Shown here piece by piece: positions 841 through 18,318 of a stretch of 64,000 bases of DNA. The notes under the pieces are model-generated. The model did not search any database. It was not told where the DNA came from and saw nothing but the letters and a program-made list of their open reading frames with translations. The translations under genes were made by a program, and so were the position numbers. The first letter of the stretch is position 1. The number at the start of each line of letters is the position of its first letter. The stretch is from contig JBAZQY010000002.1 of NCBI GenBank assembly GCA_041663185.1, positions 152,496-216,495 of the forward strand, given 5' to 3'. This DNA comes from Minisyncoccota bacterium. GTDB taxonomy: Bacteria; Patescibacteriota; Minisyncoccia; Phycocordibacterales; UBA9973.

Positions 841-1419
841 ATGGAGAAAAAACACATAATAACGATTGCTGGTAAGCTTGGAAGCGGAAAATCTTCAACT
901 TCTAAAAGAGTGGCTAATCTTTTAAATTATGAGAGAGTCTCTACTGGTGAGTTTATGCGATTGATGGCTGACAAAAAAGGAATCGCATTAGATGAATTAA
1001 GTAAAATAGCCGAAGCGGATATTTCCATAGATAAGCAATTAGATGATTATAATTTAGAAATAGGAAAAAAAGAAAATATTATTTTAGATTCTCGGCTTGG
1101 TTTTTATTTCATTCCTAATTCTTTTAAAGTATTTCTTGAGCTTGATCCTAATGTTGCCTCAGAAAGAATTCTAGAAGATAAAAAAACAAATCCTAATCGA
1201 CACACAGAGGCGACTGGAGTTTTTGATACAAAAGAAAGTATAATTGAAAGCATAAATAATCGTCTATCAAGCGAGAGAAGAAGATATAAACAGTTATATG
1301 GAATTAATGATTTAACGGCGCATGAAAATTTTGATTTGGTTATTGATACCTCTAAGATGCCGTTAGAAGAAGTCTCTCAGAAAATTATAGAAGAATATAA
1401 TAATTGGTTAAACAAATAA
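841..1419 (+). CDS. cytidylate kinase-like P-loop nucleotide kinase
   Basis: N-terminal Walker A motif (IAGKLGSGKSST), about 190 aa, with the overall shape of a (d)CMP kinase-like family. The assignment is from motif memory only. Confidence 0.55.
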   Translation: MEKKHIITIAGKLGSGKSSTSKRVANLLNYERVSTGEFMRLMADKKGIALDELSKIAEADISIDKQLDDYNLEIGKKENIILDSRLGFYFIPNSFKVFLELDPNVASERILEDKKTNPNRHTEATGVFDTKESIIESINNRLSSERRRYKQLYGINDLTAHENFDLVIDTSKMPLEEVSQKIIEEYNNWLNK

Positions 1420-1424
1420 ATAAG

Positions 1425-2822
1425 ATGAAAATACTAAGCGAATTATTAGAAGATATAAAAGTAATTGAAAGCCATGGAAATCTTGATGCTCGAGTGTCTT
1501 CTGTTTCGCTTAATTCAAAAACTATTGAACCGAGGTCATTGTTTGTCGCATTAGTTGGAAATGTCGTTGACGGACATATATTTATTGATGAAGTGGTTGA
1601 AAAAGGAGCTACTGTGGTAATTTATGAAAATGATCCCAAGGAGTTTAAGAGTGGCGTGACTTATTTGAAAGTGACTGATACTCATAGTGTTGTAGGAATA
1701 ATCGCTGATAATTTTTACGGGAATCCGTCTCGCAAGTTGAAATTAGTTGGAGTGACTGGCACAAACGGTAAGACTACAACAGTGACATTACTCCATCAAC
1801 TTTTTCGTAATTTAGGATATAAGGTAGGAATGATTGGGACAGTTGTTAATAAAATAAATGATAAATTTTATGAAGCTACTAGAACAACTCCGGACCCAGT
1901 TAGTTTGAATAAATTACTGGCCGAAATGGTAGATGAAGGTTGTGAATATTGTTTTATGGAAGTCTCATCTCATTCTGTCTGCGAAAAGAGAATTTCTGGA
2001 CTTTCTTTTGTTGGGGGTATATTTACAAATCTTACGCTTGATCATTTGGACTATCATAAAACAATAGATAATTATTGTAATGCCAAAAAAAGTTTTTTTG
2101 ATATTTTACCTGCGACAGGTTTTGCAATTGCAAATATTGATGACGAGAAAGGGGAGTATATACTAAGTACTACAAAAGCCCATAAATATACAATGAGTTT
2201 GAAACAAGAGGCAGATTTTAATGAACGACTTGAGACAAAACTAATCGGCGAATTTAATATGTATAATGTTTTAGGTGTATATGCTGTGGCTGTTTTACTC
2301 GGACAGGATAGGGAAAAAGTTAAAGAATTAATAAGGGAACTAGATGGAGCTCCAGGGAGATTCCAGGCAATTAAAAGCAAAAATAATATTACCGGAATTG
2401 TTGACTATGCTCATTCACCAGATGCCTTAGAGAATGTTTTGAAAACAATAAACCAAATGAAAGGAGATGGACGAGTTATTTCTGTTGTTGGGTGTGGCGG
2501 AGATCGAGATAAAAGTAAACGTCCAATTATGGCAAAGATTGGCTATGAAATGAGCGACATTCTTATCCTTACATCTGATAATCCAAGAAGTGAAAAACCT
2601 GAAGATATTTTAAGTGAAATGCAGAAGGGAATTCCGCTTGATGGTATAGATAAAGTTGAGATTATTATTGATCGGCGGATAGCAATTCAAAAGGCCTGTG
2701 AACTTGCCAAAGAAGGGGATTATATTTTAGTGGCCGGTAAGGGCCATGAAAATTATCAAGAAGTAAACGGAGTCAAAACCCATTTTGATGATATGGAAGA
2801 ATTAAAAAAATATTTGGAATAA
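1425..2822 (+). CDS. murE: UDP-N-acetylmuramoyl-L-alanyl-D-glutamate--2,6-diaminopimelate (or L-Lys) ligase MurE
   Basis: Mur ligase motifs GVTGTNGKTTT and DYAHSPDALENVL are present. The track ORF begins at a TTG at 1404, and the ATG at 1425 (MKILSELLED) is the more likely start. Confidence 0.9.
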   Translation: MKILSELLEDIKVIESHGNLDARVSSVSLNSKTIEPRSLFVALVGNVVDGHIFIDEVVEKGATVVIYENDPKEFKSGVTYLKVTDTHSVVGIIADNFYGNPSRKLKLVGVTGTNGKTTTVTLLHQLFRNLGYKVGMIGTVVNKINDKFYEATRTTPDPVSLNKLLAEMVDEGCEYCFMEVSSHSVCEKRISGLSFVGGIFTNLTLDHLDYHKTIDNYCNAKKSFFDILPATGFAIANIDDEKGEYILSTTKAHKYTMSLKQEADFNERLETKLIGEFNMYNVLGVYAVAVLLGQDREKVKELIRELDGAPGRFQAIKSKNNITGIVDYAHSPDALENVLKTINQMKGDGRVISVVGCGGDRDKSKRPIMAKIGYEMSDILILTSDNPRSEKPEDILSEMQKGIPLDGIDKVEIIIDRRIAIQKACELAKEGDYILVAGKGHENYQEVNGVKTHFDDMEELKKYLE

Positions 2823-2825
2823 ATT

Positions 2826-2859
2826 ATTATTTTGTCATTTTGCAAAATGACAAAATAAT
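2826..2859. promoter_or_regulatory. 34-bp perfect palindrome (attattttgtcattttgcaaaatgacaaaataat), candidate operator or hairpin between murE and the Cys-rich gene
   Basis: Perfect dyad symmetry was checked base by base. It lies 9 nt upstream of the ATG at 2868. A 21-nt copy of one half (attttgtcattttgcaaaatg) occurs at 6-26 inside tsaD. Confidence 0.4.
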
Positions 2860-2867
2860 CATAAAAA

Positions 2868-4538
2868 ATGGAAACAGAAAAAAGAATTTGTAAAAAATGC
2901 CAGCAGGAATTCATTTTAGACCAAGATGATTTTTCATTTTACGAAAAAATGAAAGTACCTGTACCTGAAATTTGTCCGGATTGCAGATTTAAAATGCGAG
3001 CAATGTGGAGGAATGAAACCACTTTATATTCAGGGCAGAAATGTGGTTTGTGTAATGATAGTATTATAACTGTCTATAATAGTAAGAATAATTTTAAGGT
3101 TTTTTGTTATAAATGTTTTTTATCTGACTCATGGGATGCGAAGGATTATGCAAAAAATTATAATAAGGAGGAATCTTTTTTGGGTCAATTTCATGATCTT
3201 TTTAGGAAAGTTCCAAAGAAAAATTTATCAATAGATTTATCAAGTGGTCCTATTATAAATACTTCATATGCGAATGGGGCAGGAGGTATGAAAAACTGCT
3301 ATATGGTTTTTAATGGTGGAGGCGGAGAGGATATGATGTATTGTCGTGGGATAATGAAAGCCAAAGAAATTAGTGATTGTTATTTTGGTGAAAACATAGA
3401 GTTATCGTATGAATGCATTCACATAAATAAGTCGACAGGTATTACTTTTGGAGATAGTATTGTCGGATGTGTTGATTGTATGTTTTTAAAAAATTGTAGT
3501 GGCCTTACTAATTGCTTTGGGTGTGTAAATTTAAGAAATAAAAGTCATTGTTGGTTTAATGAACAGCTCACTCGTGATGAATACACGGATAGGCTAAAAG
3601 AAATAAATGGAAGTTATTCTAAAATAGAAGAAATGAAAAAAAAGTTTTGTGATTTTTGTTTGTCGTTCTCTAATCGAGAAAATCATAATATAAAAGCTAT
3701 TGATTGTACGGGGGATTATTTATTTGATAGTAAGAATCTAAAAGAATCGTTTGAAGTAACTGAATCAGAAAATTGTAGATATCTTTGTTATACAAAAAAA
3801 ACAAACGATTCATTAGGGGTAATGGGTTTTGGAATAAAATCGGAACAATTGTTAGAAGTTGTATCTACTGGATATTCTAGTAACATAATATCTTCAAATG
3901 GTATCGATGGTTCTCAAAATATTATGTATTCAAATTCATTACATAACTGTCATGATTGTATTGGTTGTGATGGTCTTAAAAATGCTGAGTACTGTATTTT
4001 AAATAAACAATATAGTAAAGAAGAATATGAAAAGTTTAAAGAACACATAGTTAAAGAACTCACAGAATTGGGTATTCATGGGTTAATGATGCCTCCAGAA
4101 ATTGCTCCATTTGCTTATAATGAGACAATTGCTCAGGATAATATGCCTTTGACTAAAGAGGAAGCTATCGCAGAGGGGTTCAGATGGGAAGATGATATTC
4201 AGATGACGAAAGGGAAGGAAACATTGCAACAAGAAGCAATTCATGATCATATAAATGAAGTCAAAGATGAAATTACAAAAGAAATATTAAGGTGTATAAA
4301 TTGTGAACGGAATTATAAGATTACAGAACAAGAATTATTGTTTTACCGAAAAATGAAATTACCAATTCCAAGAAAATGCTTCTTTTGCCGCCATCAGGAT
4401 CGTATAAAAAGAAGAGGTCCGTATAAATTCTGGGATAGAAAATGTGACCATTGTGGAAAAGATATCAAAACCAATTACTCACCAAATAGTCCAGAGATTA
4501 TTTACTGTGAGGATTGTTATAAGCAGGAAGTAATATAA
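2868..4538 (+). CDS. large Cys-rich protein with N- and C-terminal zinc-ribbon-like CxxC pairs and internal Cys-repeat units; function unknown
   Basis: The 556-aa ORF carries many CxxC pairs. Similar terminal modules occur at both ends: CKKCQQEF..FYEKMKVPVPEICPDCR and CINCERNY..FYRKMKLPIPRKCFFCR..CDHCGKD..CEDC. Internal repeats such as NCFGCVNLRNKSHCWFNEQ and DCIGCDGLKNAEYCILNKQ are also present. It sits between murE and murD. Confidence 0.7.
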   Translation: METEKRICKKCQQEFILDQDDFSFYEKMKVPVPEICPDCRFKMRAMWRNETTLYSGQKCGLCNDSIITVYNSKNNFKVFCYKCFLSDSWDAKDYAKNYNKEESFLGQFHDLFRKVPKKNLSIDLSSGPIINTSYANGAGGMKNCYMVFNGGGGEDMMYCRGIMKAKEISDCYFGENIELSYECIHINKSTGITFGDSIVGCVDCMFLKNCSGLTNCFGCVNLRNKSHCWFNEQLTRDEYTDRLKEINGSYSKIEEMKKKFCDFCLSFSNRENHNIKAIDCTGDYLFDSKNLKESFEVTESENCRYLCYTKKTNDSLGVMGFGIKSEQLLEVVSTGYSSNIISSNGIDGSQNIMYSNSLHNCHDCIGCDGLKNAEYCILNKQYSKEEYEKFKEHIVKELTELGIHGLMMPPEIAPFAYNETIAQDNMPLTKEEAIAEGFRWEDDIQMTKGKETLQQEAIHDHINEVKDEITKEILRCINCERNYKITEQELLFYRKMKLPIPRKCFFCRHQDRIKRRGPYKFWDRKCDHCGKDIKTNYSPNSPEIIYCEDCYKQEVI

Positions 4539-4540
4539 TT

Positions 4541-5911
4541 ATGCAAAATTACAAACAACAATTTAAGGATAAGAAAATTACAATTATGGGATTGGGTATT
4601 TTGGGGAGAGGGGTGGGATATACAAAATTCTTGGCTGAATGTGGGGCTGATTTGATTGTGACAGATTTGAAAACGAAAGAACAACTTGCAACTTCAATAC
4701 AAGCATTAAAAAAGTTTAAAAATATTAAATTTGTTTTAGGTGAGCATCGGTTGGAAGATTTTATAAACAGAGATATGGTGATTAAAGCGGCAGGTGTTCC
4801 CATAGATTCTATTTACATAAAAGAGGCCAAGAAAAATAAAATCCCAGTTGAGATGGACGTGTCTCTTTTTGCTAAGTGTGCTCCTGGTGTAATGATAATC
4901 GGAGTGACGGGGACAAGAGGCAAATCAATGACGACAACTTTGATTTATCAAATATTGAGACAGAATATAAAAGACAACAATGTCTATGTGGGTGGTAATC
5001 TTCGTGGAGTTGCGACCTTACCACTTCTTAAAAAAGTAAAAGCGAGGGATATTTTAGTTTGTGAACTTGATTCATGGCAATTGCAGGGTTTCGGAGAAGC
5101 AAAGATTTCCCCACACATTTCAGTATTTACGACATTCATGCCTGATCATATGAATTATTATAAGAATTCGATGAAAGATTATTTTAATGATAAGGCAAAT
5201 ATTTTTAAGTATCAGAAAAAAAATGACGTACTAATTATTCGTCCAGGGATGAAGAAGTTTATAAATAAAAAAGAAGTTAAGGGTAAACTTGTAGTTATAA
5301 ATTCAGAAAAAGTAAAAAATTGGAAGTTCAATGTTCCAGGTATTCATCATCGAGAGAATTTAGCTTGTGCTGTGGCTGTGGCAAAGCAACTTGGTATTTC
5401 AGAGGTAAAGATTAAAAAATCAATTACGGATTTTAAAGATTTAGAAGGGCGGCTGCAACTTTTGCGAACGTATAAAGGAATAAAAATATATAATGACAAT
5501 AATGCGACAACCCCAGAAGCAACAATTGCTGGGATTGAAGCATTAGTTGACCAGCCCCGAACCCGGTTCAGGGCTAGCCCTGAACCGGGTTCGGGGCAAA
5601 GAAGAATAATTTTAATCTGTGGAGGTTCAGACAAGGGTCTTCCTCTTGATAATTTTGTTAAAACTGTAAATAAATATTGCAAAGCAGTAATTTTTCTTGA
5701 GGGGAGTGGTACAGAAAAATTACTGAGTAGTAAGCAGAAAGTAGTAGGTATTAAGGTAAAAACAATCAAAGAAGCGGTACAAGAAGCAATTAAACAAGCC
5801 AATAAAGGAGATATAATTTTGTTTTCTCCAGCGTTTGCATCGTTTGGAATGTTTAATAATGAATATGAACGTAACGATTTGTTTATGAAGATTATTAGAA
5901 GTTTAAAATAA
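4541..5911 (+). CDS. murD: UDP-N-acetylmuramoylalanine--D-glutamate ligase MurD
   Basis: N-terminal Rossmann motif (ITIMGLGILGRGVG) and Mur ligase P-loop (GVTGTRGKSMTTT) are present, with adjacent mur genes as context. Confidence 0.9.
   Translation: MQNYKQQFKDKKITIMGLGILGRGVGYTKFLAECGADLIVTDLKTKEQLATSIQALKKFKNIKFVLGEHRLEDFINRDMVIKAAGVPIDSIYIKEAKKNKIPVEMDVSLFAKCAPGVMIIGVTGTRGKSMTTTLIYQILRQNIKDNNVYVGGNLRGVATLPLLKKVKARDILVCELDSWQLQGFGEAKISPHISVFTTFMPDHMNYYKNSMKDYFNDKANIFKYQKKNDVLIIRPGMKKFINKKEVKGKLVVINSEKVKNWKFNVPGIHHRENLACAVAVAKQLGISEVKIKKSITDFKDLEGRLQLLRTYKGIKIYNDNNATTPEATIAGIEALVDQPRTRFRASPEPGSGQRRIILICGGSDKGLPLDNFVKTVNKYCKAVIFLEGSGTEKLLSSKQKVVGIKVKTIKEAVQEAIKQANKGDIILFSPAFASFGMFNNEYERNDLFMKIIRSLK
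5555..5596. repeat. 42-bp perfect GC-rich palindrome (ccccgaacccggttcaggg-ctag-ccctgaaccgggttcgggg) embedded in-frame in murD
   Basis: Both 19-nt arms and the 4-nt centre were verified. The local GC is far above the window background. It encodes PRTRFRASPEPGSG, which looks like an extra loop placed before the conserved IILICGGSDKG segment. Confidence 0.6.
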
Positions 5912-5915
5912 TTTT

Positions 5916-6536
5916 ATGAAAAAACAAATAATATTTATAAGAGGAGGAGAAGTGTTTGATAATATGGAAGACATGTATGAGTATTTAAGAACTGTAAAAT
6001 GCGATCCGTATAATAAGACAAAAGAGTGGAGGGATTGGATAATATGGGCACTTGAAGAATCTTATGATTTAATATGTCCGCTGATGCCAAACAAGCAGAA
6101 TGCTGATTACACAGCTTGGAAAATATGGTTTGAAAGACACTTCGAGTTTATTACAGATGATAATCCTATTTTGATAGGACATTCTTTAGGTGGCGCCTTT
6201 CTCCTTAAATATTTATCTGAAAATGGTTTTTCTAAAAAAATATTACAGTTACATTTAGTAGCACCTTATGTTGAAAATAATGGTATTTATTTAGAAAAAT
6301 TAAATACTTTTGCTTTTGATATTAAAAAAATAAATAAAATTAAAGATATGTGTAATGAAATACATCTTTGGCACTCAAGGGATGATAATTCTGTTCCTTT
6401 TTCTCACAGTGAGTTAGTTAAAAAAAATATTTCTACTGCAGAATTCCATATCTTTGATGACCGTGGGCATTTTCGACAACCTGCCTTCCCTGAGATATTA
6501 GAAGTAATAAATAAATCAATATATGAAAGAAATTGA
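5916..6536 (+). CDS. alpha/beta serine hydrolase, RBBP9/YdeN-like
   Basis: Nucleophile elbow GHSLGG, followed by a downstream acidic residue and His (SRDDNSVPF..DDRGHF). Size is about 200 aa. Confidence 0.6.
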   Translation: MKKQIIFIRGGEVFDNMEDMYEYLRTVKCDPYNKTKEWRDWIIWALEESYDLICPLMPNKQNADYTAWKIWFERHFEFITDDNPILIGHSLGGAFLLKYLSENGFSKKILQLHLVAPYVENNGIYLEKLNTFAFDIKKINKIKDMCNEIHLWHSRDDNSVPFSHSELVKKNISTAEFHIFDDRGHFRQPAFPEILEVINKSIYERN

Positions 6537-6729
6537 GAAAAAATATACAAAAAAACAAACGATTAAAATCCTTAAAAGACTGGTAGATTCTTTGGCTAAA
6601 GGTAAAGCTTTTCGAATGCAAATAAAAGGGAAAAAAGTTTATGTTTCAAAAGAAACGGAAATAGAAATAGAATACGAGAAAGACAAAAAGAAAGAAAAAG
6701 TTGAGATTGAAATTAAATGGGAAAAATAA
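6523..6729 (+). CDS. amphi-Trp domain small protein
   Basis: 68 aa, Lys/Glu-rich, ending in the EIEIKWEK pattern characteristic of amphi-Trp domain proteins. It overlaps the upstream gene by 14 nt. Confidence 0.5.
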   Translation: MKEIEKKYTKKQTIKILKRLVDSLAKGKAFRMQIKGKKVYVSKETEIEIEYEKDKKKEKVEIEIKWEK

Positions 6730-6730
6730 G

Positions 6731-7147
6731 ATGAAAAAGGTTGTATTTATTGATCATGGTAATATGCTTCGAAGTCCAATTGCAAAGGCTATTTATAATC
6801 AACTAGCAAAAGATGGTTCTTTGGCTTATAGTTATGGTACTCATGTGTTAGAGCAAGGATATCAAGGCAAAAAACTTTCTTCATTTAAAAAATTAGAAAT
6901 AGAAATCAATGAGATGAAAAAATATGGACTAGATATTTCTAACGAATATTGCGAACAGCTAAAAGAAGAATATCTGAAAGATGCTGACAAGGTTATTGTT
7001 ATGTTAGAAAAAGAATTTATTCCAGAGTGGCTGAATAATTATAAATGTGAACATTGGGAAATTCCAAATCCAGAGGCTCATACAAGCCAAATAATTGAAG
7101 ATATAATTAAATTAATTAAGAAAAAAGTTTTAAAATTAATAAAATAA
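6731..7147 (+). CDS. low-molecular-weight phosphotyrosine phosphatase / ArsC-like fold protein with Asp in place of the P-loop cysteine
   Basis: The N-terminal VFIDHGNMLRSPIAKAI aligns to the LMW-PTP CxGNxCRS P-loop with a C-to-D change. The size (about 139 aa) fits. The ATG at 6731 is preferred over the track start at 6701. Confidence 0.45.
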   Translation: MKKVVFIDHGNMLRSPIAKAIYNQLAKDGSLAYSYGTHVLEQGYQGKKLSSFKKLEIEINEMKKYGLDISNEYCEQLKEEYLKDADKVIVMLEKEFIPEWLNNYKCEHWEIPNPEAHTSQIIEDIIKLIKKKVLKLIK

Positions 7148-7149
7148 AA

Positions 7150-7178
7150 AAGACGGGCCGTTAATCGACCCGCCTCTA
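7150..7178. terminator. imperfect hairpin plus T-run between convergent genes
   Basis: gacgggccgttaatcgacccgcctc followed by tattttta; the stem is imperfect. Confidence 0.3.
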
Positions 7179-7181
7179 TTT

Positions 7182-7991
7182 TTATTTATATATAATCAAA
7201 ATAACTTTTCTTGCACAGGTTTTTCCTCCTGTGGCATCGTAACAATGATCCCACCAACATAGACTAGGGGATGTCTGCATCTTCTGGTAACTTATTCTCT
7301 TGGATTTAAATCCGTGAAGAATAAATTGTTCTCCGATGATACTTGGCACTGACACTCCGCCATGCTTTTCCCCAAGAGGCACTGCATTTTCTGCGTAATT
7401 GTTTTGGAGGAAACTCAGTACCATTTTATTCGCTGTTTCAGATCCTGGCTCTTCGATATCATACCTAAATGAATCTGGCTCCAGTCCACCCACTATGAAT
7501 ATTTCATAATCATAGGATTCATGAGCATCAGCCAACTTAGCAATATTATCGATTACACTCCAATGTTCCCTGAATTTCTGGCCGTGAAATATCTGAAGTT
7601 TATCAATAACCGAATTAAATCCTGCCTTGGCGGTAATTAATAGATCATTCCTTTTATCATGGTAAATCACAATCGGACTGCATTCTGTTGTTTCAAACAT
7701 AACCGCAGAATTTTTTTCAATAGCAAGCCCATCTGTTTGTGGGCCCTTCATAATTTTCATATTTCCAATGCTCATAAACTCTTGGAAATCTGAGGGTTGG
7801 GAAAGTTCAGCAGTAAATCCTGAACAATCTGGCCAATACAGAGTGGAAACGTCATTGTTTCGCAATATTGATAGTAGCTCCGGGTGATTACGCAAATCTT
7901 TTTCTAAACTTTCAGTTGTATCTAACATCAGAATATCTATTCTGCCCGAAAGCGAAAAAATCGAGGGATTGGTATTTTCCTGGTTTTTCAT
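7182..7991 (-). CDS. hypothetical protein (269 aa) with a C-terminal CWWDHC..GGKTC motif
   Basis: Long ORF on the minus strand, diverging from murC. No family was recognised. Confidence 0.55.
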   Translation of the reverse strand: MKNQENTNPSIFSLSGRIDILMLDTTESLEKDLRNHPELLSILRNNDVSTLYWPDCSGFTAELSQPSDFQEFMSIGNMKIMKGPQTDGLAIEKNSAVMFETTECSPIVIYHDKRNDLLITAKAGFNSVIDKLQIFHGQKFREHWSVIDNIAKLADAHESYDYEIFIVGGLEPDSFRYDIEEPGSETANKMVLSFLQNNYAENAVPLGEKHGGVSVPSIIGEQFILHGFKSKRISYQKMQTSPSLCWWDHCYDATGGKTCARKVILIIYK

Positions 7992-8095
7992 TGGTATATT
8001 TATTTGGTTATTTTCAATTTTATTTTTATATTAACACAATTTATATAGGATGTCTAAGAGTTATAAATTATCAATTTTTGTTGTATTATGTAAAC

Positions 8096-9469
8096 ATGGA
8101 TTTAGATTTATCCCTTGGCCGTAGTCATACGAACGAGGCAAAAATTAAAAATGTTCACTTTATTGGTATTGGTGGAATCGGTATTTCAGCGGTGGCGCGG
8201 ATGATGCTAGAGGAGGGGAAGAATGTTACCGGGCAGGATATGCAGGATGGGGAAATTGTTAATGAGCTTCGTTTACTCGGTATAGATATCAAAATTAGAC
8301 AATCATATGAAAATATTCCGAAAGATACAGATCTTGTAGTCTATACAATTGCTATCGAATATTATGACCCAGAATTATTTAAAAAACTGAAAGAAAGGAA
8401 TGATATAGCAATCAAATCTTATCCCGAAATGCTTGGGGTGATAAGTAAGGATAAATATACAATTGCAATTTGTGGAACTCATGGGAAGACTACAACAACA
8501 GGAATGATCTCACAAATTTTGATTGACGGTGGGAAAGACCCGATGGTGATTGTTGGAAGTTTATTAAAAGGTAAAACTAATTTTATTGCGGGTAAAAGTG
8601 ATTTGTTTGTAGTTGAGGCTTGTGAGTACCGAAGATCATTTTTGAATATTAATCCAAACGTTTTAGTTATTACAAATATTGATGAAGACCATTTGGATTA
8701 TTATAAAGATATAGAAGATATTAAAAATGCCTTCCATGAGATGGTGATGAAAGTACCAGAGGATGGATATGTAATTTGCAACCCAGATGATGAAAATATT
8801 TCGGATGTTATTAAGGGGATAAAGGCAAAAGTAATAAATTGGCAAGATTATTTTGATGCAGGTTTGAAATTAAAAATTCCTGGGATACATAATAAGAAAG
8901 ATGCCGCGGCGGCCATGGCCGCCGCGGCTACTCTTGGTATTTCTCAATCCTCTGCAAGGGGAGTCCTTGCAGAATTTCCGGGGACATGGAAACGTTTTGA
9001 ATTCAGGGGAAAACTTTCTAATGGAATACTTCTTTATGACGATTATGCTCATCATCCGACAGAAATTATGGCTACACTCGAAGGTTTTCGGGAATTGTAT
9101 CCAAAAACTGACGGCTGGAAAATCACAGTTATTTTCCAGCCACACCTATTTTCACGCACCAAATTACTTCTAGATGACTTTGCGAAAAGTTTTTCTGATG
9201 CTGATGAAGTTCTTGTTTTACCAATTTACTATGCTCGGGAAGTTGATGATGGAACAATAAGTTCAGAAATTTTAGCGGGGGAGATAAACAAACACACCAA
9301 CAATGCAAAATCTTTTTCAGATTTTAATGAAGCAGAAAAATCTCTGGAAGTCGGACCTGCCTCGCCAACGAGTCAAGGCGGGCTTCCAGAAATGGGTGAT
9401 AAAAATATTATTGTGACAATGGGGGCAGGAGAAGCTTCAAAAATTGGAGATTTCCTATTAAAAAAATAA
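8096..9469 (+). CDS. murC: UDP-N-acetylmuramate--L-alanine ligase MurC
   Basis: The sequence reads IGIGGIGISAVARMML, GTHGKTTTTGMI and DYAHHPTEI. The track ORF start at 7868 overlaps the divergent gene and contains only non-coding-looking sequence. The ATG at 8096 (MDLDLSLGRS) is preferred. Confidence 0.9.
   Translation: MDLDLSLGRSHTNEAKIKNVHFIGIGGIGISAVARMMLEEGKNVTGQDMQDGEIVNELRLLGIDIKIRQSYENIPKDTDLVVYTIAIEYYDPELFKKLKERNDIAIKSYPEMLGVISKDKYTIAICGTHGKTTTTGMISQILIDGGKDPMVIVGSLLKGKTNFIAGKSDLFVVEACEYRRSFLNINPNVLVITNIDEDHLDYYKDIEDIKNAFHEMVMKVPEDGYVICNPDDENISDVIKGIKAKVINWQDYFDAGLKLKIPGIHNKKDAAAAMAAAATLGISQSSARGVLAEFPGTWKRFEFRGKLSNGILLYDDYAHHPTEIMATLEGFRELYPKTDGWKITVIFQPHLFSRTKLLLDDFAKSFSDADEVLVLPIYYAREVDDGTISSEILAGEINKHTNNAKSFSDFNEAEKSLEVGPASPTSQGGLPEMGDKNIIVTMGAGEASKIGDFLLKK
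8903..8928. repeat. 26-bp perfect GC-rich palindrome (gccgcggcggccatggccgccgcggc) inside murC
   Basis: Verified self-complementary. It encodes the AAAAMAAAA stretch of the conserved Ala-rich MurC segment using only GC-rich Ala codons in a low-GC genome, and it contains NcoI-like and SacII-like cores. Confidence 0.5.
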
Positions 9470-9487
9470 TTGTGATATAATAAAAGA

Positions 9488-10297
9488 ATGAAAAAATATT
9501 TTCTTTCCATACTAATCATAATATTGACCATCATCGCTTTTCCAATTTCTGCAGAAGTGGTGACTAATTCCGGATTTATTCCTGGGCAAATCTGGTACTC
9601 AAAAGATACTTTAGTTGAGGGAGAAACTGTAAATATCCATACGGCAATTTGGAATGGTGAGAAAGAATCGCTTTCTGTGAAGGTAGAATTTTATGACAAA
9701 AATGTTATTTTAGGAAGTAGAGATGTTGTCTTATCACCATCAGAATTGAAAGATGTATTTGTTCCCTGGAAGATTACCTCGGGAGACCATGTTATTTCTG
9801 CAAAAATTATCTCATCACTAGCTACTATTTCTGGGAAAAAAGAAAAAGTGACTCTTGATCGTGTGACAACCTCGACAGATAAACAATTTGTCCCAGTTGT
9901 CGTGAAGAACGCACAAGGTGAATCAGTCTCTGGAACAAGTTCCTTGAAAGATCAAATAGATAATGTCGTTCCTGATAAGGTTAGCACTTCTGTGGCCAAT
10001 GGTTTTACCGTAGTAGATAATTTTCGAGATAAAACATTCACGCAAGTCTCGACAGTTCGAGATGACACCCAAGAAGAAATAAATCTTCTGAAAACAAAAG
10101 AAAAAACAGTCGCTGAAACTTTGAGTACAAAAAACAATATTGAAGATGCCACCGAAAAACCAATTGCTTATATTAAACTTTTTATTTTTTCAATCCTGGC
10201 GCTCATTTTTGGGAATAAAATAATTTTTTATGGACTTCTGGCTATTGTCGTTTTCTTTGTATTGCGTTATTTATATCGCAAAATTAGAAATAGATAA
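9488..10297 (+). CDS. secreted/membrane-anchored hypothetical protein (N-terminal signal peptide, C-terminal TM)
   Basis: The N-terminus is hydrophobic (MKKYFLSILIIILTIIAFPISA), and a C-terminal TM helix precedes a basic tail. It lies within the division/cell-wall cluster. Confidence 0.55.
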   Translation: MKKYFLSILIIILTIIAFPISAEVVTNSGFIPGQIWYSKDTLVEGETVNIHTAIWNGEKESLSVKVEFYDKNVILGSRDVVLSPSELKDVFVPWKITSGDHVISAKIISSLATISGKKEKVTLDRVTTSTDKQFVPVVVKNAQGESVSGTSSLKDQIDNVVPDKVSTSVANGFTVVDNFRDKTFTQVSTVRDDTQEEINLLKTKEKTVAETLSTKNNIEDATEKPIAYIKLFIFSILALIFGNKIIFYGLLAIVVFFVLRYLYRKIRNR

Positions 10298-10348
10298 TAT
10301 AAAATATATTTGTCAAATCTAGACTCTTTAGGGTACAATTGATTCGTA

Positions 10349-10612
10349 ATGAAGAGAGTCATTTTTGATATAATTTTATTTATTTCAGTATTTATTTTTC
10401 CTTGGTGGATAAGTGCTATTTTATTGCTCGGGGGGATTTTTCTTTTTAATAAATTTTACGAATTTATTATAGCCAGTGTAATTATTTTTGCCTTATATTC
10501 TGTTCCTGGGGTCAGGTGGATATCCTCGCCAGTCATTTTTTCACTGTTTATAATAATCTTTTATATTATGGTTGAATATTTTAAAAATAGAATTATCTTA
10601 TATAAAAAATAA
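10349..10612 (+). CDS. small integral membrane protein (87 aa)
   Basis: Two or three predicted TM helices, flush against the downstream PBP gene. Confidence 0.4.
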   Translation: MKRVIFDIILFISVFIFPWWISAILLLGGIFLFNKFYEFIIASVIIFALYSVPGVRWISSPVIFSLFIIIFYIMVEYFKNRIILYKK

Positions 10613-10615
10613 AAA

Positions 10616-12313
10616 ATGTCTTTTCACATTAATCACAGAAGAATAAAAAGAGATATTGACCCAGATGAAATTTTTCTGGATTCTAAAAATTTACCTGATT
10701 TCAACAAACAACAATTTGAAGGTAGATTAGAAAAGGCAATACCCAAACATTCAGTGCTACTGGTAGGAGCTTTTTTCTTGGTAGTTGTTTTTATTTTTGT
10801 GGGACAAGTTATAAATCTTCAAATAATAAAAGGCGAGGCATATTTTAAAAAAAGTGAAAATAATACATTGATGGAAAGACCGATTTTCGCAGACAGGGGA
10901 CTTATCTATGACCGTAATCAAGTTCTTCTTTCTTGGAATACTTGGGCAAAAGAAGATATAAATAAATTATCTTCACCAGAAAGATCTTATTATGATGCTT
11001 CCGGATTTGGATTACTTCTTGGTTATGTTAGTGCGCCAGCCAAAGACTCCTCTGGGTATTATTGGCAAGATAATTTTATCGGGAAAGATGGTGTTGAAAA
11101 ATTTTTTAATGATAATTTAACTGGGGTTAATGGAGTTCGTATTACTGAGACTGATGTGAGTGGAGTTATTCAATCAGAAAATATGATTCAATCTCCCAAG
11201 GCCGGTGAAAATCTTACATTATCGATTGATTCAAGAATTCAAAAGAAAATGTATGAATCAATGTCGTCGATGGCCAGGAATGTAAATTTTCAAGGAGGAG
11301 CCGGTGTCATGATGGATATAAAAACAGGGGAGTTACTCGCTCTGACAAGCTATCCAGAATATAATGGGAATATTTTATCTCTCGGTAAAGACAGTAAAAC
11401 GATAAGCGGATATTTTGCTGACAAACGGAAAGTTTTTTTGAATCGAGCAGTCTCAGGACTTTATAGTCCGGGGTCAACCGTCAAACCATTTCTTGGTTAT
11501 GGTGCCTTGATTGAAAATGTTATTAGTCCTCTTAAATTAATTTTTTCTAATGGGTCAATTTCAATTCCAAATCCATATTTCCCTGACAAAAAATCTGTCT
11601 TTAAAGATCATGGAACATTTGGTTATGTGGATATGAGGAAAGCGATTGCCGTTTCGTCTGACGTATATTTTTATCAAATCGGTGGAGGATTTGAAAGCCA
11701 AAAAGGTTTAGGTATTTTAAATATAGATAAATATATAAGATTGTTTGGTATTGGAGAGAAAACTGGGGTAAATCTGGGTGGAGAAAAGGATGGAACAATT
11801 CCGACACCAGAATGGAAAGCTAAAACTTTCAAGGGTGAACCATGGCGAGTGGGAGATACGTACAATACCGCTATTGGTCAGTATGGTTTCCAAGTCACAC
11901 CGGTTCAAATGGCTCGAGCAGTAGCAGGTATTGCCAATATGGGAACGATTTATACTCCACACATCACACTTGCTGATAAAAATTTTGAATCACCGCAAAT
12001 GACAATACCAGTTGACCCTGATAAAATGAAAGTTATACACGAAGGAATGCGAATGGCGGTGACGGAAGGGACTTGTATGGCCCTAAATATTCCGAGCGTT
12101 AAGGTCGCGGCTAAATCTGGAACTGCTCAAGTTGGGCTAGGTAACACAAATACTAACTCGTGGATAATTGGCTTCTTCCCGTATGAAAATCCGAGATATG
12201 CATTTGCCCTTGTCATGGAGCGTGGACCCAAAGAGGCCTCCGGAAATGCGACGAGGGTAATGAGTGAAGTCATTGATTACATGAGCGTCTATACTCCAGA
12301 ATACTTTCAATAA
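10616..12313 (+). CDS. penicillin-binding protein 2-like class B transpeptidase
   Basis: N-terminal TM anchor, SxxK (GSTVKPF), SxN-like (SSD) and KSG/KTG (AKSGTAQ) motifs. Confidence 0.85.
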   Translation: MSFHINHRRIKRDIDPDEIFLDSKNLPDFNKQQFEGRLEKAIPKHSVLLVGAFFLVVVFIFVGQVINLQIIKGEAYFKKSENNTLMERPIFADRGLIYDRNQVLLSWNTWAKEDINKLSSPERSYYDASGFGLLLGYVSAPAKDSSGYYWQDNFIGKDGVEKFFNDNLTGVNGVRITETDVSGVIQSENMIQSPKAGENLTLSIDSRIQKKMYESMSSMARNVNFQGGAGVMMDIKTGELLALTSYPEYNGNILSLGKDSKTISGYFADKRKVFLNRAVSGLYSPGSTVKPFLGYGALIENVISPLKLIFSNGSISIPNPYFPDKKSVFKDHGTFGYVDMRKAIAVSSDVYFYQIGGGFESQKGLGILNIDKYIRLFGIGEKTGVNLGGEKDGTIPTPEWKAKTFKGEPWRVGDTYNTAIGQYGFQVTPVQMARAVAGIANMGTIYTPHITLADKNFESPQMTIPVDPDKMKVIHEGMRMAVTEGTCMALNIPSVKVAAKSGTAQVGLGNTNTNSWIIGFFPYENPRYAFALVMERGPKEASGNATRVMSEVIDYMSVYTPEYFQ

Positions 12314-12332
12314 AATACCCCTTAGATATTTA

Positions 12333-12380
12333 CCCCATAGGCAAGGCCTATGGGGTAGGCCTAGGGGGTATTTGTTTTTA
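12333..12380 (+). terminator. rho-independent terminator downstream of the PBP gene
   Basis: ccccatagg-caagg-cctatgggg hairpin, then a T-run. Confidence 0.6.
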
Positions 12381-12563
12381 AAGAAGATAATTTTGCCCTT
12401 TTCTCTTTACTTTTTTATGAAAAAATGTTAGTATAGACCCATTATTTATCCCGTTATAAATCATAAGTATGAATTACGGGATTTTATATTTAGTGTAGTG
12501 CGGAGGAAAACCTTATAAGTTAATTTTTGTATCGGAATCCAAGGGTTCTATACTAACAATTAT

Positions 12564-13028
12564 ATGGAAGAAACAAACTATATCACAGAAGACAAAAAAC
12601 AAGCACTGAAAGACGAACTTCATAATTTGAAAACTATAAAACGTAAAGAAATACTTGAAGCACTTGAAGCGGCTCGAGCTCTTGGTGATTTATCTGAAAA
12701 TGCTGAGTATCATCAAGCTCGCGAAGATCAAGGTAAAACCGAAGATCGAATAAATCAAATTGAGCACATGCTCAGGTCTGCCATTGTTGTTAAAAAACAT
12801 TCAAGTAATAATGTAGAAATTGGTACAACTGTCAAAGTTAAGAGAGAAGATAGTAAAGAACCGATTACTTACAGTATTGTCGGGGCAGAAGAAGCAGATA
12901 TGGCCAATAATAAAATTTCTAATAAATCTCCACTCGGCGAGGCTCTTTTTGGAAAGCGTAAAGGGGATGTCGTATCTATCAAAACTCCCAAGGGACTAGC
13001 CAAATACACTCTTATTGATATACAATAG
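12564..13028 (+). CDS. greA: transcription elongation factor GreA
   Basis: N-terminal coiled coil with acidic finger (DLSENAEYHQAREDQ) and a C-terminal FKBP-like domain; 154 aa. Confidence 0.9.
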   Translation: MEETNYITEDKKQALKDELHNLKTIKRKEILEALEAARALGDLSENAEYHQAREDQGKTEDRINQIEHMLRSAIVVKKHSSNNVEIGTTVKVKREDSKEPITYSIVGAEEADMANNKISNKSPLGEALFGKRKGDVVSIKTPKGLAKYTLIDIQ

Positions 13029-13034
13029 AGATAT

Positions 13035-14522
13035 ATGGCAGGAATAAAAGAATTACGCGATGAGCGAATAAAGAAAATAGAATTATTAAAGAGTGCAGGG
13101 ATGAACCCATACCCAGCATCTGTTCCGCGGGACTACTCAATTGCCGAAGTTAAAAATTTTTTTGACAAACTTATAACAGAATCGGAAAAGAAAAATATTT
13201 CTATTGCCGGTCGAGTTATTGTCGTCCGAGGGCAAGGAGCAATCTTGTTTGTGGTCTTACAAGATGGAGTAGAAAGATTGCAGGCTGTTTTGAAGAAAGA
13301 TTCTTTAGATGAAGATTTATTTAATTTGTTTGTGAATACAATTGATAATGGAGATTTTATTTCAGTCACTGGCTCATTGTTTATTACTCAAAGAGGGGAG
13401 CAAAGCATTTTGATTAAAAGTTGGCAAATGGCCACCAAAGCGCTACTACCATTGCCCGATAAATGGGCTGGTCTGCAAGATCAAGAAGAAATCTATCGTA
13501 AACGATATCTAGATATTTTAATGGATAAAGAAGTTTACAATCGCTTTGTTCTTCGTTCTAAAATTATTAAATTTATTCGAGAGTTTTTTGATAATAAAAA
13601 CTTTTTGGAAGTAGAAACTCCTATATTGCAAACTCAAGCCGGAGGAGCGATGGCGAAAGTGTTTGAGACATATCATAATGATTATGCGATGCCAATGGTT
13701 TTGCGTATTGCTCTTGAGCTTGACCATAAAATGCTGATGACGGGTGGCTATGAAAGAGTTTATGAAATTGGTAAAAATTTTAGAAATGAAGGTACAGACC
13801 CGACGCACTTACAAGAATTCACGATGATGGAATGGTATGCTGCTTACCAAAGCCTTGAGACAAATATGAAATGGACAGAAGAGCTTATTAAATTAATTGC
13901 GAGTGATTTAATCGGGAAGACATCATTTAAGGTTTATGATAATGAAGGGAATGGAACAGATGTCGAGTTGGGTGGGGAGTGGCCACGAGTGACGTTCGAT
14001 TCTTTACTTAAAAAAGATGCAAATATTGATATTGAAACAATTACGGAAGAGGAAGCACGTAGAGAAGCGATAAAATGGGGAATAAAAGAAGAAGAAGCAG
14101 AGAAACTGGGTCGCGGTAACTTACTCGATAAAATTTACAAGAAATCTTCCAGGATTAAAATTATTAATCCGACTTTTGTGACAGATTTTCCTGGGGATTT
14201 GAAACCTCTGGCTCAACAGAATGAAAATGGAACAGCGAAAGTTTGTCAGTTGATTATTGCTGGAGCAGAAATTACAAATCAGTATGCTGAATTAGTAAAT
14301 CCAAAAATCCAACGCGATCTTCTCATCGCTCAATCAAAGGCCAAAGAAGGGGGAGATGAAGAAGCAATGCAAGTTGATGAAAATTTTTTGACTGCAATGG
14401 AGCATGGCATGCCACCGATGACTGGATTTGGAATGGGCATAGACCGACTGGTAGCAATATTTACAGAACAAAAAAATCTCAGGGATGTTATTTTCTTCCC
14501 AATAATGAAACCAAGAGAATAA
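13035..14522 (+). CDS. lysS: lysine--tRNA ligase (class II)
   Basis: N-terminal OB anticodon-binding domain and class II motifs (FLEVETPIL, FRNEGTD..H..EFTMME, GMGIDRL). Confidence 0.95.
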   Translation: MAGIKELRDERIKKIELLKSAGMNPYPASVPRDYSIAEVKNFFDKLITESEKKNISIAGRVIVVRGQGAILFVVLQDGVERLQAVLKKDSLDEDLFNLFVNTIDNGDFISVTGSLFITQRGEQSILIKSWQMATKALLPLPDKWAGLQDQEEIYRKRYLDILMDKEVYNRFVLRSKIIKFIREFFDNKNFLEVETPILQTQAGGAMAKVFETYHNDYAMPMVLRIALELDHKMLMTGGYERVYEIGKNFRNEGTDPTHLQEFTMMEWYAAYQSLETNMKWTEELIKLIASDLIGKTSFKVYDNEGNGTDVELGGEWPRVTFDSLLKKDANIDIETITEEEARREAIKWGIKEEEAEKLGRGNLLDKIYKKSSRIKIINPTFVTDFPGDLKPLAQQNENGTAKVCQLIIAGAEITNQYAELVNPKIQRDLLIAQSKAKEGGDEEAMQVDENFLTAMEHGMPPMTGFGMGIDRLVAIFTEQKNLRDVIFFPIMKPRE

Positions 14523-14534
14523 AAAATATTAAAA

Positions 14535-14565
14535 AGACCCAGGTAATTTACCGGGGTCTTTTTTG
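14535..14565 (+). terminator. rho-independent terminator after lysS
   Basis: agacccagg-taattta-ccggggtct followed by tttttt. Confidence 0.6.
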
Positions 14566-14579
14566 ATAGAGATAATCTA

Positions 14580-14765
14580 TCAGAATCCTGATATCTGTCC
14601 TTTGGGGACAAATGGCATATCAATCTCTCCCTCTTTGCAAATAGAGGTGGTTGATTCTTTTTGTGCACTTTGAAGGGCATAAATTGTTTTGGAAAACGGC
14701 CAGAAGCCTATTTTCTTTGCAACAATAAAATATACTCCAGGCGGGTAAATGACATTTTTTTTCAT
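14580..14765 (-). CDS. small hypothetical ORF (61 aa), possibly not a real gene
   Basis: The ORF lies in the gap between lysS and mraZ, and nothing else supports it. Confidence 0.2.
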   Translation of the reverse strand: MKKNVIYPPGVYFIVAKKIGFWPFSKTIYALQSAQKESTTSICKEGEIDMPFVPKGQISGF

Positions 14766-14844
14766 GGCCTTAAATTTACTATAAATTATATAACAAAATA
14801 AGCTTTTTGTCTATTTTTAGAACCCTTAGTTATCCACAGATTTA

Positions 14845-14915
14845 AAGTGGGGAGGGTTGTTTGTTTTGTGGGATAAAGTGGTGTATAATTAAAGCAAGTG
14901 GGATACAGTGGGAAA
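14845..14915 (+). promoter_or_regulatory. mraZ promoter with a GTGGG direct-repeat array (candidate MraZ operator)
   Basis: GTGGG(G/A) or GTGGT repeats start at 14847, 14868, 14878, 14898 and 14908, spaced 10 or about 20-21 bp apart. A TATAAT box at 14884-14889 and a TTGTTT -35-like element at 14861-14866 (17-bp spacer) overlap the repeats. Confidence 0.55.
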
Positions 14916-14949
14916 AGATAAAATAGTAAATATTCCACTTTTTAATTTT

Positions 14950-15384
14950 ATGTTAATTGGCGAATACACTCACACACTAGACGATAAAAATAGAATGTCT
15001 CTACCCGTAAAATTCCGCAAGGAGATGGGGAAAAGTGTTGTCGTTGCCCCAGGGCTAGACAACTGTCTTTCAATTTTTACAACGCACGAGTGGCAAAAAA
15101 TTTCAGGAAAATTATCTGACTCATCAATGCTCGCTAGTGACAATAGAAGTTTCTCGAGATTTATGTTTGGTCAAGCTGTCGTCGTCGATGTCGATACAAA
15201 TGGCCGAATACTAATCCCGGAAAATTTGAAAAATCGTTCAGGCTTATCTAGTAAGGTTGTTGTTATTGGTGTGCAGAACCGCGCCGAAATCTGGAATGAG
15301 AAAGCATGGAATGATTACAAGAAAGTAGTGGAGAAGCAGGCAGATGCCCTGGCAGATAAATTAGGGCAAATAGGTGTTCTTTAA
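14950..15384 (+). CDS. mraZ: transcriptional regulator MraZ
   Basis: MLIGEYTHTLDDKNRMSLPVKFR matches the MraZ N-terminus with its duplicated DxxxR motif. The ATG at 14950 is preferred over the track start at 14908. Confidence 0.9.
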   Translation: MLIGEYTHTLDDKNRMSLPVKFRKEMGKSVVVAPGLDNCLSIFTTHEWQKISGKLSDSSMLASDNRSFSRFMFGQAVVVDVDTNGRILIPENLKNRSGLSSKVVVIGVQNRAEIWNEKAWNDYKKVVEKQADALADKLGQIGVL

Positions 15385-15385
15385 A

Positions 15386-16282
15386 ATGAAACATATTTCT
15401 GTATTACTAAGTGAATCAATTGATGGGCTAGAAATAAAGCCAGGTGAAATTATTGTTGATGGAACACTCGGAGGTGGTGGACATACACTTGAAATAATCC
15501 GTCGTCTTGGAAACAAAGTGAAAATAATTTGCCTCGACTTAGACACTGACGCAATCAGAAGAGCAAAGAAATTAATAGACAAAACATTGGGTGATGTAGT
15601 CTACCAGACAGCTGGGTTCCAAGATATTGAGCAAGTGCTTGATGGTTTGAAGATAAAAAATGTCGATAAGATTCTACTTGATTTGGGGCTAAGTTCATTT
15701 CAATTGGAAGAAGGAGATAGGGGATTCACATTTTCAAAAGATGAACCACTTCTAATGACAATGAAGAAAAATCCAAACTCAAATGATTTAACTGCTTATG
15801 AAATTGTGAATACTTGGGGAGAAGAATCGTTGGCGGATATAATTTATGGTTTTGGAGAAGAAAAATATTCAAGAAAAATTGCCAGGGCGATAGTAGAAGC
15901 TCGCGAAGAAAAGGAGATAAAGACAACTTTTGATTTGAATGAAATTATTGAAAAAACTGTTGGCAAATTCTATCGAGGTAAAAAAATTCATCCATCAACT
16001 AGGACCTTCCAAGCATTAAGAATTGCGACTAATAGTGAATTAATTAATTTGGAAAAAGTAATACAAAAAGGTTTCGAAAGATTATCAATCAGGGGAAGAA
16101 TGGCCATTATTAGTTTTCATAGTTTAGAAGATCGCATTGTCAAAAAAGCATTTTTAAAATTAAAACAAGAAGGTTGTGCAAATATTATTACAAAAAAACC
16201 AATAGTGCCGAGTGATGAAGAAATTAAATTAAATCCTCGTTCACGTAGTGCTAAATTAAGATTAATAGAAAAAACAAAGTAA
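15386..16282 (+). CDS. rsmH: 16S rRNA (cytosine1402-N4)-methyltransferase RsmH (MraW)
   Basis: The sequence reads HISVLLSESIDGL..DGTLGGGGH, with a DLG motif (LLDLGLSS). It immediately follows mraZ. Confidence 0.9.
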   Translation: MKHISVLLSESIDGLEIKPGEIIVDGTLGGGGHTLEIIRRLGNKVKIICLDLDTDAIRRAKKLIDKTLGDVVYQTAGFQDIEQVLDGLKIKNVDKILLDLGLSSFQLEEGDRGFTFSKDEPLLMTMKKNPNSNDLTAYEIVNTWGEESLADIIYGFGEEKYSRKIARAIVEAREEKEIKTTFDLNEIIEKTVGKFYRGKKIHPSTRTFQALRIATNSELINLEKVIQKGFERLSIRGRMAIISFHSLEDRIVKKAFLKLKQEGCANIITKKPIVPSDEEIKLNPRSRSAKLRLIEKTK

Positions 16283-16286
16283 ATAT

Positions 16287-16610
16287 ATGACAAAAGCAAA
16301 AGCAATCACAAAAGATATCACAGAAAATATTAAAACACAAAAAATGTTACTTCGAGTGTTGATTTGTAGTTCAATCGTTTTGTGCGCTGTCTATATTTAT
16401 CTTATTGGTTCTATAACTTTCAATATTATTGCCCGCAAATCATTAGAAAATACAGCAACTAACCTAGCCAATAGTGTGAATCAACTTGAATTGACCTATT
16501 TGAATAATGTGAAGGGAATAGATAAAGAATATGCTTTTTCAAAAGGATTTGTAGATGTTCATCAAAATATTTTTGCAACAAGAGATATTAATCATGTCGC
16601 TATTCGCTAA
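16287..16610 (+). CDS. FtsL-like small bitopic division protein
   Basis: 107 aa with a single TM helix and then a coiled coil, in the conserved position between rsmH and ftsI. Confidence 0.5.
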   Translation: MTKAKAITKDITENIKTQKMLLRVLICSSIVLCAVYIYLIGSITFNIIARKSLENTATNLANSVNQLELTYLNNVKGIDKEYAFSKGFVDVHQNIFATRDINHVAIR

Positions 16611-18316: not shown

Positions 18317-18318
18317 TT

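Follow-up and report, generated by a model that had tools for sequence, protein, structure and literature searches.

The gene between murE and murD

The subject of this analysis is a cysteine-rich protein encoded in a 64-kb stretch of DNA from a Minisyncoccota bacterium (64,000 nucleotides, here called the window), together with the large family to which it belongs. Its gene, named X, is a complete open reading frame (ORF) at positions 2868-4538 of the + strand. It starts with ATG and encodes 556 amino acids (aa), with a mass of 64.6 kDa and a pI of 5.95. The gene lies between two Mur ligase genes of the same strand. Upstream is murE (1404-2822), whose product matches the Pfam domains Mur_ligase (3e-7), Mur_ligase_M (5.6e-46) and Mur_ligase_C (1.2e-34), and downstream is murD (4541-5911), with MurD-like_N, Mur_ligase_M and Mur_ligase_C. 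Only 2 nt separate the stop codon of X from the ATG of murD (junction TAATTATG), and therefore both genes are probably co-transcribed and translationally coupled. A preliminary description of the stretch had reported a protein of this length with many CxxC pairs between murE and murD, and the Pfam matches of the neighbours and the cysteine counts confirm it. X contains 35 cysteines (6.3%) and 13 CxxC motifs, against 2.15 +/- 1.35 in shuffled sequences of the same composition (maximum 8, n=5000).

X is a real, conserved, soluble cytoplasmic protein. Alignments of its orthologues begin at residue 1, and no transmembrane segment, signal peptide or hydrophobic segment was found in it (maximum KD(19) = 1.18). 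An identical (100%) NCBI protein, WC603_02730, comes from a metagenome-assembled genome (MAG) of Candidatus Paceibacterota and is annotated as 'hypothetical protein'. The sequence had thus already been deposited, and the family has no name, core model, structure or literature.

The earlier statement that no family could be recognised was correct. Pfam returned for X only sub-threshold matches to the terminal fingers, namely PF13451 (zf_Tbcl; 17.2 bits against a gathering cut-off of 24, E 0.0049) at aa 6-43 and PF23477 (zf_Tbcl_2; 20.5 bits against 27, E 4e-4) at aa 524-553. The NCBIfam model TIGR04272 also remained below its cut-off (17.7 bits against 36); with zf_Tbcl_2 it covers aa 523-553. 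Nothing in Pfam, NCBIfam, PADLOC or PHROGs matched the core of about 400 aa, and PADLOC gave 0 matches for X. Among 80 diverse members of the family, zf_Tbcl_2 was detected at E < 0.01 in 44 (best 8.8e-10) and zf_Tbcl in 27, and precomputed PF23477 matches exist for the orthologues P0006, P0015, P0018 and P0097. The zf_Tbcl_2 domain is probably homologous to the C-terminus of X, though X itself is sub-threshold. Pfam did not match the core in these 80 members either; the terminal fingers and one GNAT fusion were the only matches. The fusion protein, P0245 (731 aa), carries an N-terminal GNAT domain (Acetyltransf_1, 3e-8) joined to the body of X (aa 184-728) and has lost several finger cysteines. 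It may be a functional hint or a gene-calling fusion. Sequence and profile searches of the PDB retrieved only LIM-type fingers at E >= 0.002, and Foldseek found no match to the predicted structure below E 0.02. No description turned up in the literature, where the family itself, its Pfam and TIGR accessions and cysteine-rich paralogue arrays in the candidate phyla radiation (CPR) were looked for.

Domain architecture and predicted structure

The structure of X was predicted with AlphaFold2 from an alignment of 132 sequences, and the conservation of each cysteine was counted across 132 members. The model has a pLDDT (per-residue confidence) of 89.2 and a pTM (overall fold confidence) of 0.90. 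It places a double-finger module at each end of the protein and two narrow β-solenoids between them.

The N-terminal double zinc-finger module (2868-3152, + strand like all segments below; aa 1-95) is predicted with pLDDT >90. Its first finger is treble-clef-like, with C8, C11, C36 and C39 conserved at 94-100%, and its second is of the CxxC...CxxC kind, with C59, C62, C80 and C83 conserved at 66-95%. The C-terminal double zinc-finger module (4278-4535, aa 471-556) comprises a treble-clef-like, strongly basic finger (C476, C479, C504, C507) and a CxxC...CxxC finger with the spacing C526-x2-C529-x17-C547-x2-C550, whose four cysteines are conserved at 96-98%. The net charge of aa 471-520 is +10 in X and averages +7 in the family. 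The outer fingers (C8/11/36/39 and C526/529/547/550) are near invariant at 94-100%, the inner fingers are retained by 66-79% of the members, and all four CxxC...CxxC sets are conserved at 66-100%. The two terminal modules had been called near-identical. They are homologous (E 3e-11) and share a motif, FYEKMKVPVP at aa 24 and FYRKMKLPIP at aa 492; their identity over 77 aa amounts to 29%, and near-identity cannot be maintained.

A helix connects the N-terminal module with β-solenoid 1 (3225-3563, aa ~120-232), a narrow solenoid that ends in the cysteine-rich cap NCFGCVNLRNKSHCWFNEQ. It is followed by a helical hairpin (3573-3659, aa 236-264) with helices at aa 236-246 and 250-264. β-Solenoid 2 (3663-4007, aa 266-380; strands predicted at aa 268-377) is closed by the cap DCIGCDGLKNAEYCILNKQ, whose C367 is conserved at 97% and whose N379 never varies. 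Homology also links the two halves of the core, the solenoids sharing 27% identity (E 2e-8). The internal cysteine-rich repeat previously proposed exists in two copies, NCFGCVNLRNKSHCWFNEQ at aa 215-233 and DCIGCDGLKNAEYCILNKQ at aa 363-381, each closing one half of the core, with the spacing C-x2-N-x-Q instead of the C-x3-N-x-Q first given. Each cap has one conserved cysteine (C216 and C367; 92-97%). In total, conservation extends to about 16-20 of the 35 cysteines, and CxxCxxC runs lie at the solenoid caps.

Between solenoid 2 and the C-terminal module lies a segment (4008-4277, aa 381-470) made up of a helix (aa 384-400) and an acidic conserved linker (aa 403-470), and containing PFAYNETIAQDNMPLTKEEA..GFRWEDD. 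The net charge of the linker is -9.7 in X, with a family mean of -6.8; Y417, N418, G437 and W440 are near invariant, and its entropy of 0.64 bits within subfamily A, the group to which X belongs, is the second lowest. Within this subfamily, conservation is highest in the acidic linker and the basic C-terminal finger. Among paralogues, the solenoids and the hairpin vary most, the hairpin having the highest column entropy (2.66 bits). The overall architecture is novel, being assembled from known elements such as Cys4 fingers and β-solenoids.

A large family, its arrays and a recurrent ATPase neighbour

The family is very large, restricted to Patescibacteria (CPR) and uncharacterised. In a word-indexed protein database clustered at 90% identity, X had 6755 significant matches, for which details were taken from the best 120. 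These 120 are 58-100% identical to X over 99-100% of the length, almost all have 552-577 aa, and every entry named by its source is a 'hypothetical protein'. They originate from Candidatus Paceibacterota, Nomurabacteria, Staskawiczbacteria and related groups. HMMER, run exhaustively against 1.84 billion representatives of 50%-identity clusters, detected 3540 clusters at E <= 1e-3, 2521 at <= 1e-10 and 1310 at <= 1e-30; nearly all of the best 150 of the 3540 are 545-600 aa long and collinear with X. In a scan of one genome per species, at least 581 genome stretches encode a relative. Viral contigs are essentially devoid of the family, with one partial match at a contig end, and a phage origin was rejected on this basis.

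Gene context was analysed in 80 loci, each extending +/-6 kb and labelled L001-style (e.g. L012). All taxon-specific labels among them are patescibacterial; the others are generic 'bacterium' entries and one contig from a 'Burkholderiales' MAG (L080, JAMPXW010000001.1). This last contig has 31% GC and gene neighbours from clusters common to the CPR loci L005 and L072, and both features indicate that it almost certainly belongs to Patescibacteria and was misbinned.

Single-linkage clustering at 50% identity divided the family into subfamilies. Subfamily A occurs in 39 loci with one copy each, always of 553-558 aa (median 556 aa), and X shares with it the full-length collinear homology, the conserved cysteine sets and the length. 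It is the most conserved subfamily: X is 58-76% identical to about 120 proteins (excluding the identical one), and across classes the identity within the subfamily is about 60-76%. Ancient paralogues make up the remaining subfamilies, which include B (multi-copy, 590 aa), C (575 aa) and D.

Family genes are frequently arranged in arrays. The loci contain 188 family ORFs in 79 of the 80, with at least two copies in 47 of the 79, always on the same strand and head-to-tail, and the median gap between neighbouring copies is 9 nt. The largest array shows up to nine tblastn segments in one 13.6-kb stretch. Copies within a locus have a median identity of 38.5%, and 96% have a closer relative in another genome; because of both, the paralogues are taken as ancient and maintained, and not as recent expansions. 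In the 64-kb window, a search for further copies found none besides X.

The neighbours of these arrays point to a possible partner. Unbiased clustering of the 599 non-family ORFs yielded one dominant cluster, with 42 members of ~500 aa in 28 of the 80 loci. Its Pfam matches are TrwB_AAD_bind, T4SS-DNA_transf, TraG-D_C and DUF87/HerA, and in PADLOC it matches mad8 (6.7e-13) and HerA models; literature on mad8/MADS offered nothing helpful. These proteins have no transmembrane segment or membrane anchor and are soluble P-loop ATPases of the VirD4/TrwB/HerA type. The first family gene typically follows directly on the ATPase gene, at a median distance of 4 nt (n=16), and the arrays are apparently often operonic with the ATPase. 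A recurring frame is mreB-ATPase-[X array]-rsmE-ATPase-dnaJ. The order (PaaX-like)-mreB-ATPase-[X array]-rsmE-second ATPase-dnaJ was observed in L003, L009, L011, L012, L015, L019, L023, L035, L061, L070 and others, and in such Paceibacteria neighbourhoods two copies of an ATPase resembling type IV coupling proteins (T4CPs) bracket the family array.

A 2025 survey counted 5713 VirD4-like homologues in 2918 Patescibacteria genomes, that is ~2 per genome, of which 148 lie near virB4, and its authors suggested exaptation (PMC12102498). With ~2 copies per genome, such an ATPase is estimated to fall in a random 13-kb window only a few percent of the time. Its presence in 35% of the 13-kb windows around X would thus correspond to a roughly ten-fold enrichment.

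Possible functions and relation to known systems

The explanation favoured here, held tentatively, is that X is a modular zinc-dependent adaptor acting with orphan VirD4-like ATPases. The modularity is suggested because the linker and the C-terminal finger are the best conserved parts within subfamily A and the solenoids and the hairpin diverge most among paralogues. The terminal finger modules and the linker would form the constant part that binds a common partner. This partner might be the hexameric ATPase, nucleic acid contacted through the basic C-terminal finger, or both. The variable solenoids and the hairpin would determine the ligand chosen by each paralogue. In the lineage of the window, an array site between murE and murD may have shrunk to a single subfamily-A copy, so that the placement of X would reflect relocation and would be no sign of a function with Mur ligases.

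Several points weigh against this explanation. The window contains no VirD4-like ATPase in its 64 kb, and the partnership is therefore not obligatory for subfamily A; 52 of the 80 loci are also without the ATPase within +/-6 kb. The enrichment is overestimated, since related genomes share ancestry and are not independent samples. The zinc sites are putative Zn(Cys)4 fingers deduced from CxxC geometry only, and N-module finger 2 and C-module finger 1 are degenerate in 25-35% of the paralogues. In the middle of the solenoids the pLDDT is only ~68-78. Two different subfamilies are found inside cell-wall clusters, which fits a role in the cell envelope better. Finally, no characterised homologue points to a specific activity.

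A further-reaching proposal, which is rather doubtful, is that the family and the orphan soluble VirD4/HerA-like ATPases together constitute an unrecognised cytoplasmic machine. The ATPase would be its hexameric motor, and the family proteins would serve this motor as ancient zinc-finger/β-solenoid adaptors, each with its own specialisation; one array would encode up to 9 of them, and together they would take up about 2% of a sub-megabase genome. The machine might target nucleic acids or proteins of the cell envelope and of division. If true, this machine would explain why T4CP homologues are unlinked to type IV secretion genes.

The other explanations are weaker than the adaptor model. According to one of them, which seems unlikely, X is a sequence-specific DNA-binding regulator whose double-finger modules, spaced by the rigid solenoid, read bipartite or palindromic operators, and the paralogues are an expanded family of the transcription-factor kind. 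Regulators typically form paralogue-rich families, and the C-terminal finger module carries a strong positive charge (+7 to +10). A candidate operator exists as well, since the perfect 34-bp palindrome reported upstream of X was found again at 2826-2859. This AT-rich element, ATTATTTTGTCATTTTGCAAAATGACAAAATAAT, is located in the 45-nt spacer between murE and X, with 8 nt between its end and the ATG. No second copy exists in the window, shuffled sequences gave 0 matches, and as RNA the element would fold into a hairpin of -13.4 kcal/mol (z = -3.4 vs shuffles). It overlaps promoter-like hexamers directly upstream of X, containing TTGTCA-16-AATAAT on both strands. The palindrome may be an internal promoter or operator, with nothing specific to X. 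It is lineage-specific: none of the seven orthologous murE-X spacers that were compared contains it, and the corresponding spacer of L082 holds a 34-bp near-palindrome of another sequence. When perfect inverted repeats with arms >= 11 nt were counted in the spacers of the 80 loci, they stood upstream of 18% of family genes vs 11% of other genes, which is no significant enrichment (Fisher p = 0.15). The idea of dedicated regulation by a specific operator was rejected on these grounds, the element also being one of several palindromes in the window. An intrinsic terminator was rejected too, as there is no T-run and the terminator scan was empty, and Rfam gave nothing near threshold on 2500-4800. 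Moreover, a length of 556 aa and an overall acidic charge of -6.8 are atypical for a bacterial repressor, and searches of X revealed neither a helix-turn-helix nor a known DNA-binding fold.

Some palindromes upstream of family genes share the core TTCTATAGAA / ACATTCT..AGAATGT across genomes. The sites are at 4960-4995 in L082 (its murE-X spacer element), ~3930-3985 in L059, ~4074-4356 in L041 and 7677-7727 in L016, with TCTATTCTATAATTCTATAGAATTGTAGAATAGA in L082 and AGTTTATTCTATAATTCTATAGAATTATAGAATAAACT in L059 as examples. Such recurrence would agree with the regulator explanation; the core may be a conserved operator of some Paceibacteria regulator.

Three further palindromes were noticed in the window. 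A perfect 44-bp GC-rich palindrome without loop (5554-5597; arms GCCCCGAACCCGGTTCAGGGCT and AGCCCTGAACCGGGTTCGGGGC) lies in-frame within the AT-rich murD, where it encodes an extra loop, approximately QPRTRFRASPEPGSGQRR, that is absent from most orthologous MurD proteins; L004 has a diverged version, FPETRFRGVSPKPGFGERK. By analogy it looks like an in-frame insertion of a palindromic element, comparable to the Rickettsia palindromic elements. A perfect 26-bp GC-rich palindrome (8903-8928; arms GCCGCGGCGGCCA and TGGCCGCCGCGGC) is situated within murC (8099-9469) and, as read from the sequence, encodes AAAAMAAAA; it may be an insertion or an alanine-rich segment that was remodelled. The third, a perfect 30-bp palindrome at 38023-38052 (arms AAAAAATTCCCGATA and TATCGGGAATTTTTT), stands between the convergent ORFs 37586-38023 (+) and 38054-38326 (-) and looks like a bidirectional intrinsic terminator.

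It was also proposed that X acts on the Mur ligases as a metal-dependent scaffold or regulator, in peptidoglycan-precursor synthesis or, more broadly, in the cell-envelope machinery. This proposal is quite unlikely to hold. It originates from the flanking genes and the 2-nt distance to murD, and the order murE-X-murD recurs in L002, L004, L010, L013, L016 (with an extra paralogue) and L022, and probably in L031, making 6-7 of the 39 subfamily-A loci; murE-X was seen in L031 and L082. Subfamily C lies within scpA-scpB-vanY-X-mraY-ftsW-murG in five loci (L042, L046, L049, L050, L071), and mreB is near family genes in 12 loci. The wider picture is different. Among 36 full-length subfamily-A orthologues of at least 47% identity, the upstream neighbour is a Mur ligase in only 6, a VirD4-like ATPase in 8, a family copy in 8 and an unrelated gene in 10; downstream, a Mur ligase follows in 5 and a family paralogue in 14. 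No conserved position of X in the division and cell-wall (dcw) cluster, as a core gene of that cluster would have, emerged from these 36, so that synteny in related genomes, which the preliminary description had advised checking, is largely not conserved. The relative with 76% identity, the closest among the matches listed, is placed elsewhere, between a 590-aa paralogue and HIT-recJ in the order tpiA-pgk-X(590 aa)-X_A-HIT-recJ, and in a relative with 71% identity cmk-murE is followed by four family genes.

Between murE and murD, 1, 2 or at least 4 family genes are found. Such variation is the behaviour of an array site and not of a fixed partner, and in one clade the interval is such a site, filled to a varying degree. 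Family genes have entered cell-wall clusters at least twice, which is suggestive, but each dcw context traces to one clade, so that they amount to about two evolutionary events. A loose association of the family with cell-envelope genes persists as a residual hint. In addition, up to 9 paralogues are not needed for regulating four Mur ligases.

The assumption that X interrupts an otherwise contiguous dcw cluster does not apply to this genome. Its cell-wall and division genes (841-19623) are dispersed over ~20 kb and already interleaved with unrelated genes. They begin with cmk (841-1419), murE, X and murD, followed by an α/β-hydrolase (5916-6536), murC, a penicillin-binding protein (PBP, 10616-12313), a class II aminoacyl-tRNA synthetase (13035-14522), rsmH (15374-16282), an ftsI-like PBP (16610-18316) and a murF-like ligase (18319-19623).

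The operonic linkage to VirD4/TrwB-like ATPases with a TraG-D_C match, the tandem paralogue arrays and the basic C-terminal region could also be expected of substrates or effectors that VirD4-like coupling proteins recognise and a type IV secretion system (T4SS) delivers to host cells; the arrays would then form an effector repertoire. T4SSs are widespread in Patescibacteria (PMC12102498). This explanation is nevertheless very unlikely, as the ATPase has no N-terminal membrane anchor like that of true coupling proteins and is almost never encoded near virB4. The identity of 58-76% across many MAGs and metagenomes in the best 120 matches, together with the ancient paralogues, is housekeeping-like and not a sign of rapid turnover, and tightly folded multi-zinc proteins are poor secretion substrates. 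Least probable of all is a self-assembling cytoskeletal or structural β-solenoid with bactofilin- or curli-like stacking, or a metal-storage or redox (Fe-S) protein, for which the mreB neighbourhood, the cysteine content and the CxxCxxC runs may be cited, but X has no bactofilin, curlin or Fe-S Pfam match, helices and finger modules cap the solenoid ends in the model and oppose end-to-end stacking, and only about half of the cysteines (~16-20) are conserved.

Patescibacteria have tiny genomes, yet many keep several 1.7-kb copies of the family under strong purifying selection, and the family is therefore likely important for their biology. The definition of the family and its link to the ATPase provide a testable handle on the role of exapted coupling-protein homologues, a question raised by the survey (PMC12102498). 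They also prevent a misleading annotation as 'Mur-ligase partner' based on the gene order of one lineage.

Several known systems resemble parts of X. The termini share with zf_Tbcl, zf_Tbcl_2 and TIGR04272 the signatures CxxC...FY...P..C..CR and CxxC-x17-CxxC; these models span ~35-45 aa per end and are functionally uncharacterised, and the core of X has no counterpart in them. In LIM domains, two consecutive Cys4 fingers likewise form one module, and the best PDB profile matches were the second fingers of CRP/LIM proteins (E 0.002-0.06). LIM proteins are eukaryotic, however, with other spacing, and the matches cover ~35 residues and are not significant for homology. Narrow β-solenoids are known from CsgA (8c50) and from antifreeze and ice-binding proteins (1m8n, 3ult, 1ezg), which are small secreted proteins held together by disulfides or amyloid stacking, whereas X is cytoplasmic, carries two solenoids between zinc-finger modules and is only 6-8% identical to them. 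X has no Curlin_rpt or bactofilin (DUF583) domain and no signal peptide. Unlike left-handed β-helix acyltransferases and γ-carbonic anhydrases (GlmU, LpxA/D, Cam), it has no trimer-interface active-site motif, no Hexapep Pfam match and only Foldseek matches of E >= 0.025 and template-modelling score < 0.1.

The comparison closest to the adaptor model is with T4CPs (VirD4/TrwB/TraD) and their adaptors, and with HerA-partner complexes. The ATPase near the family differs from these in being soluble and not near virB4, and it has no relaxase, NurA or Sir2-type partner; the X of the window, moreover, is not adjacent to such an ATPase. What is alike is the arrangement itself, the apparent operons of family genes and ATPase resembling pairs of motor plus adaptor.

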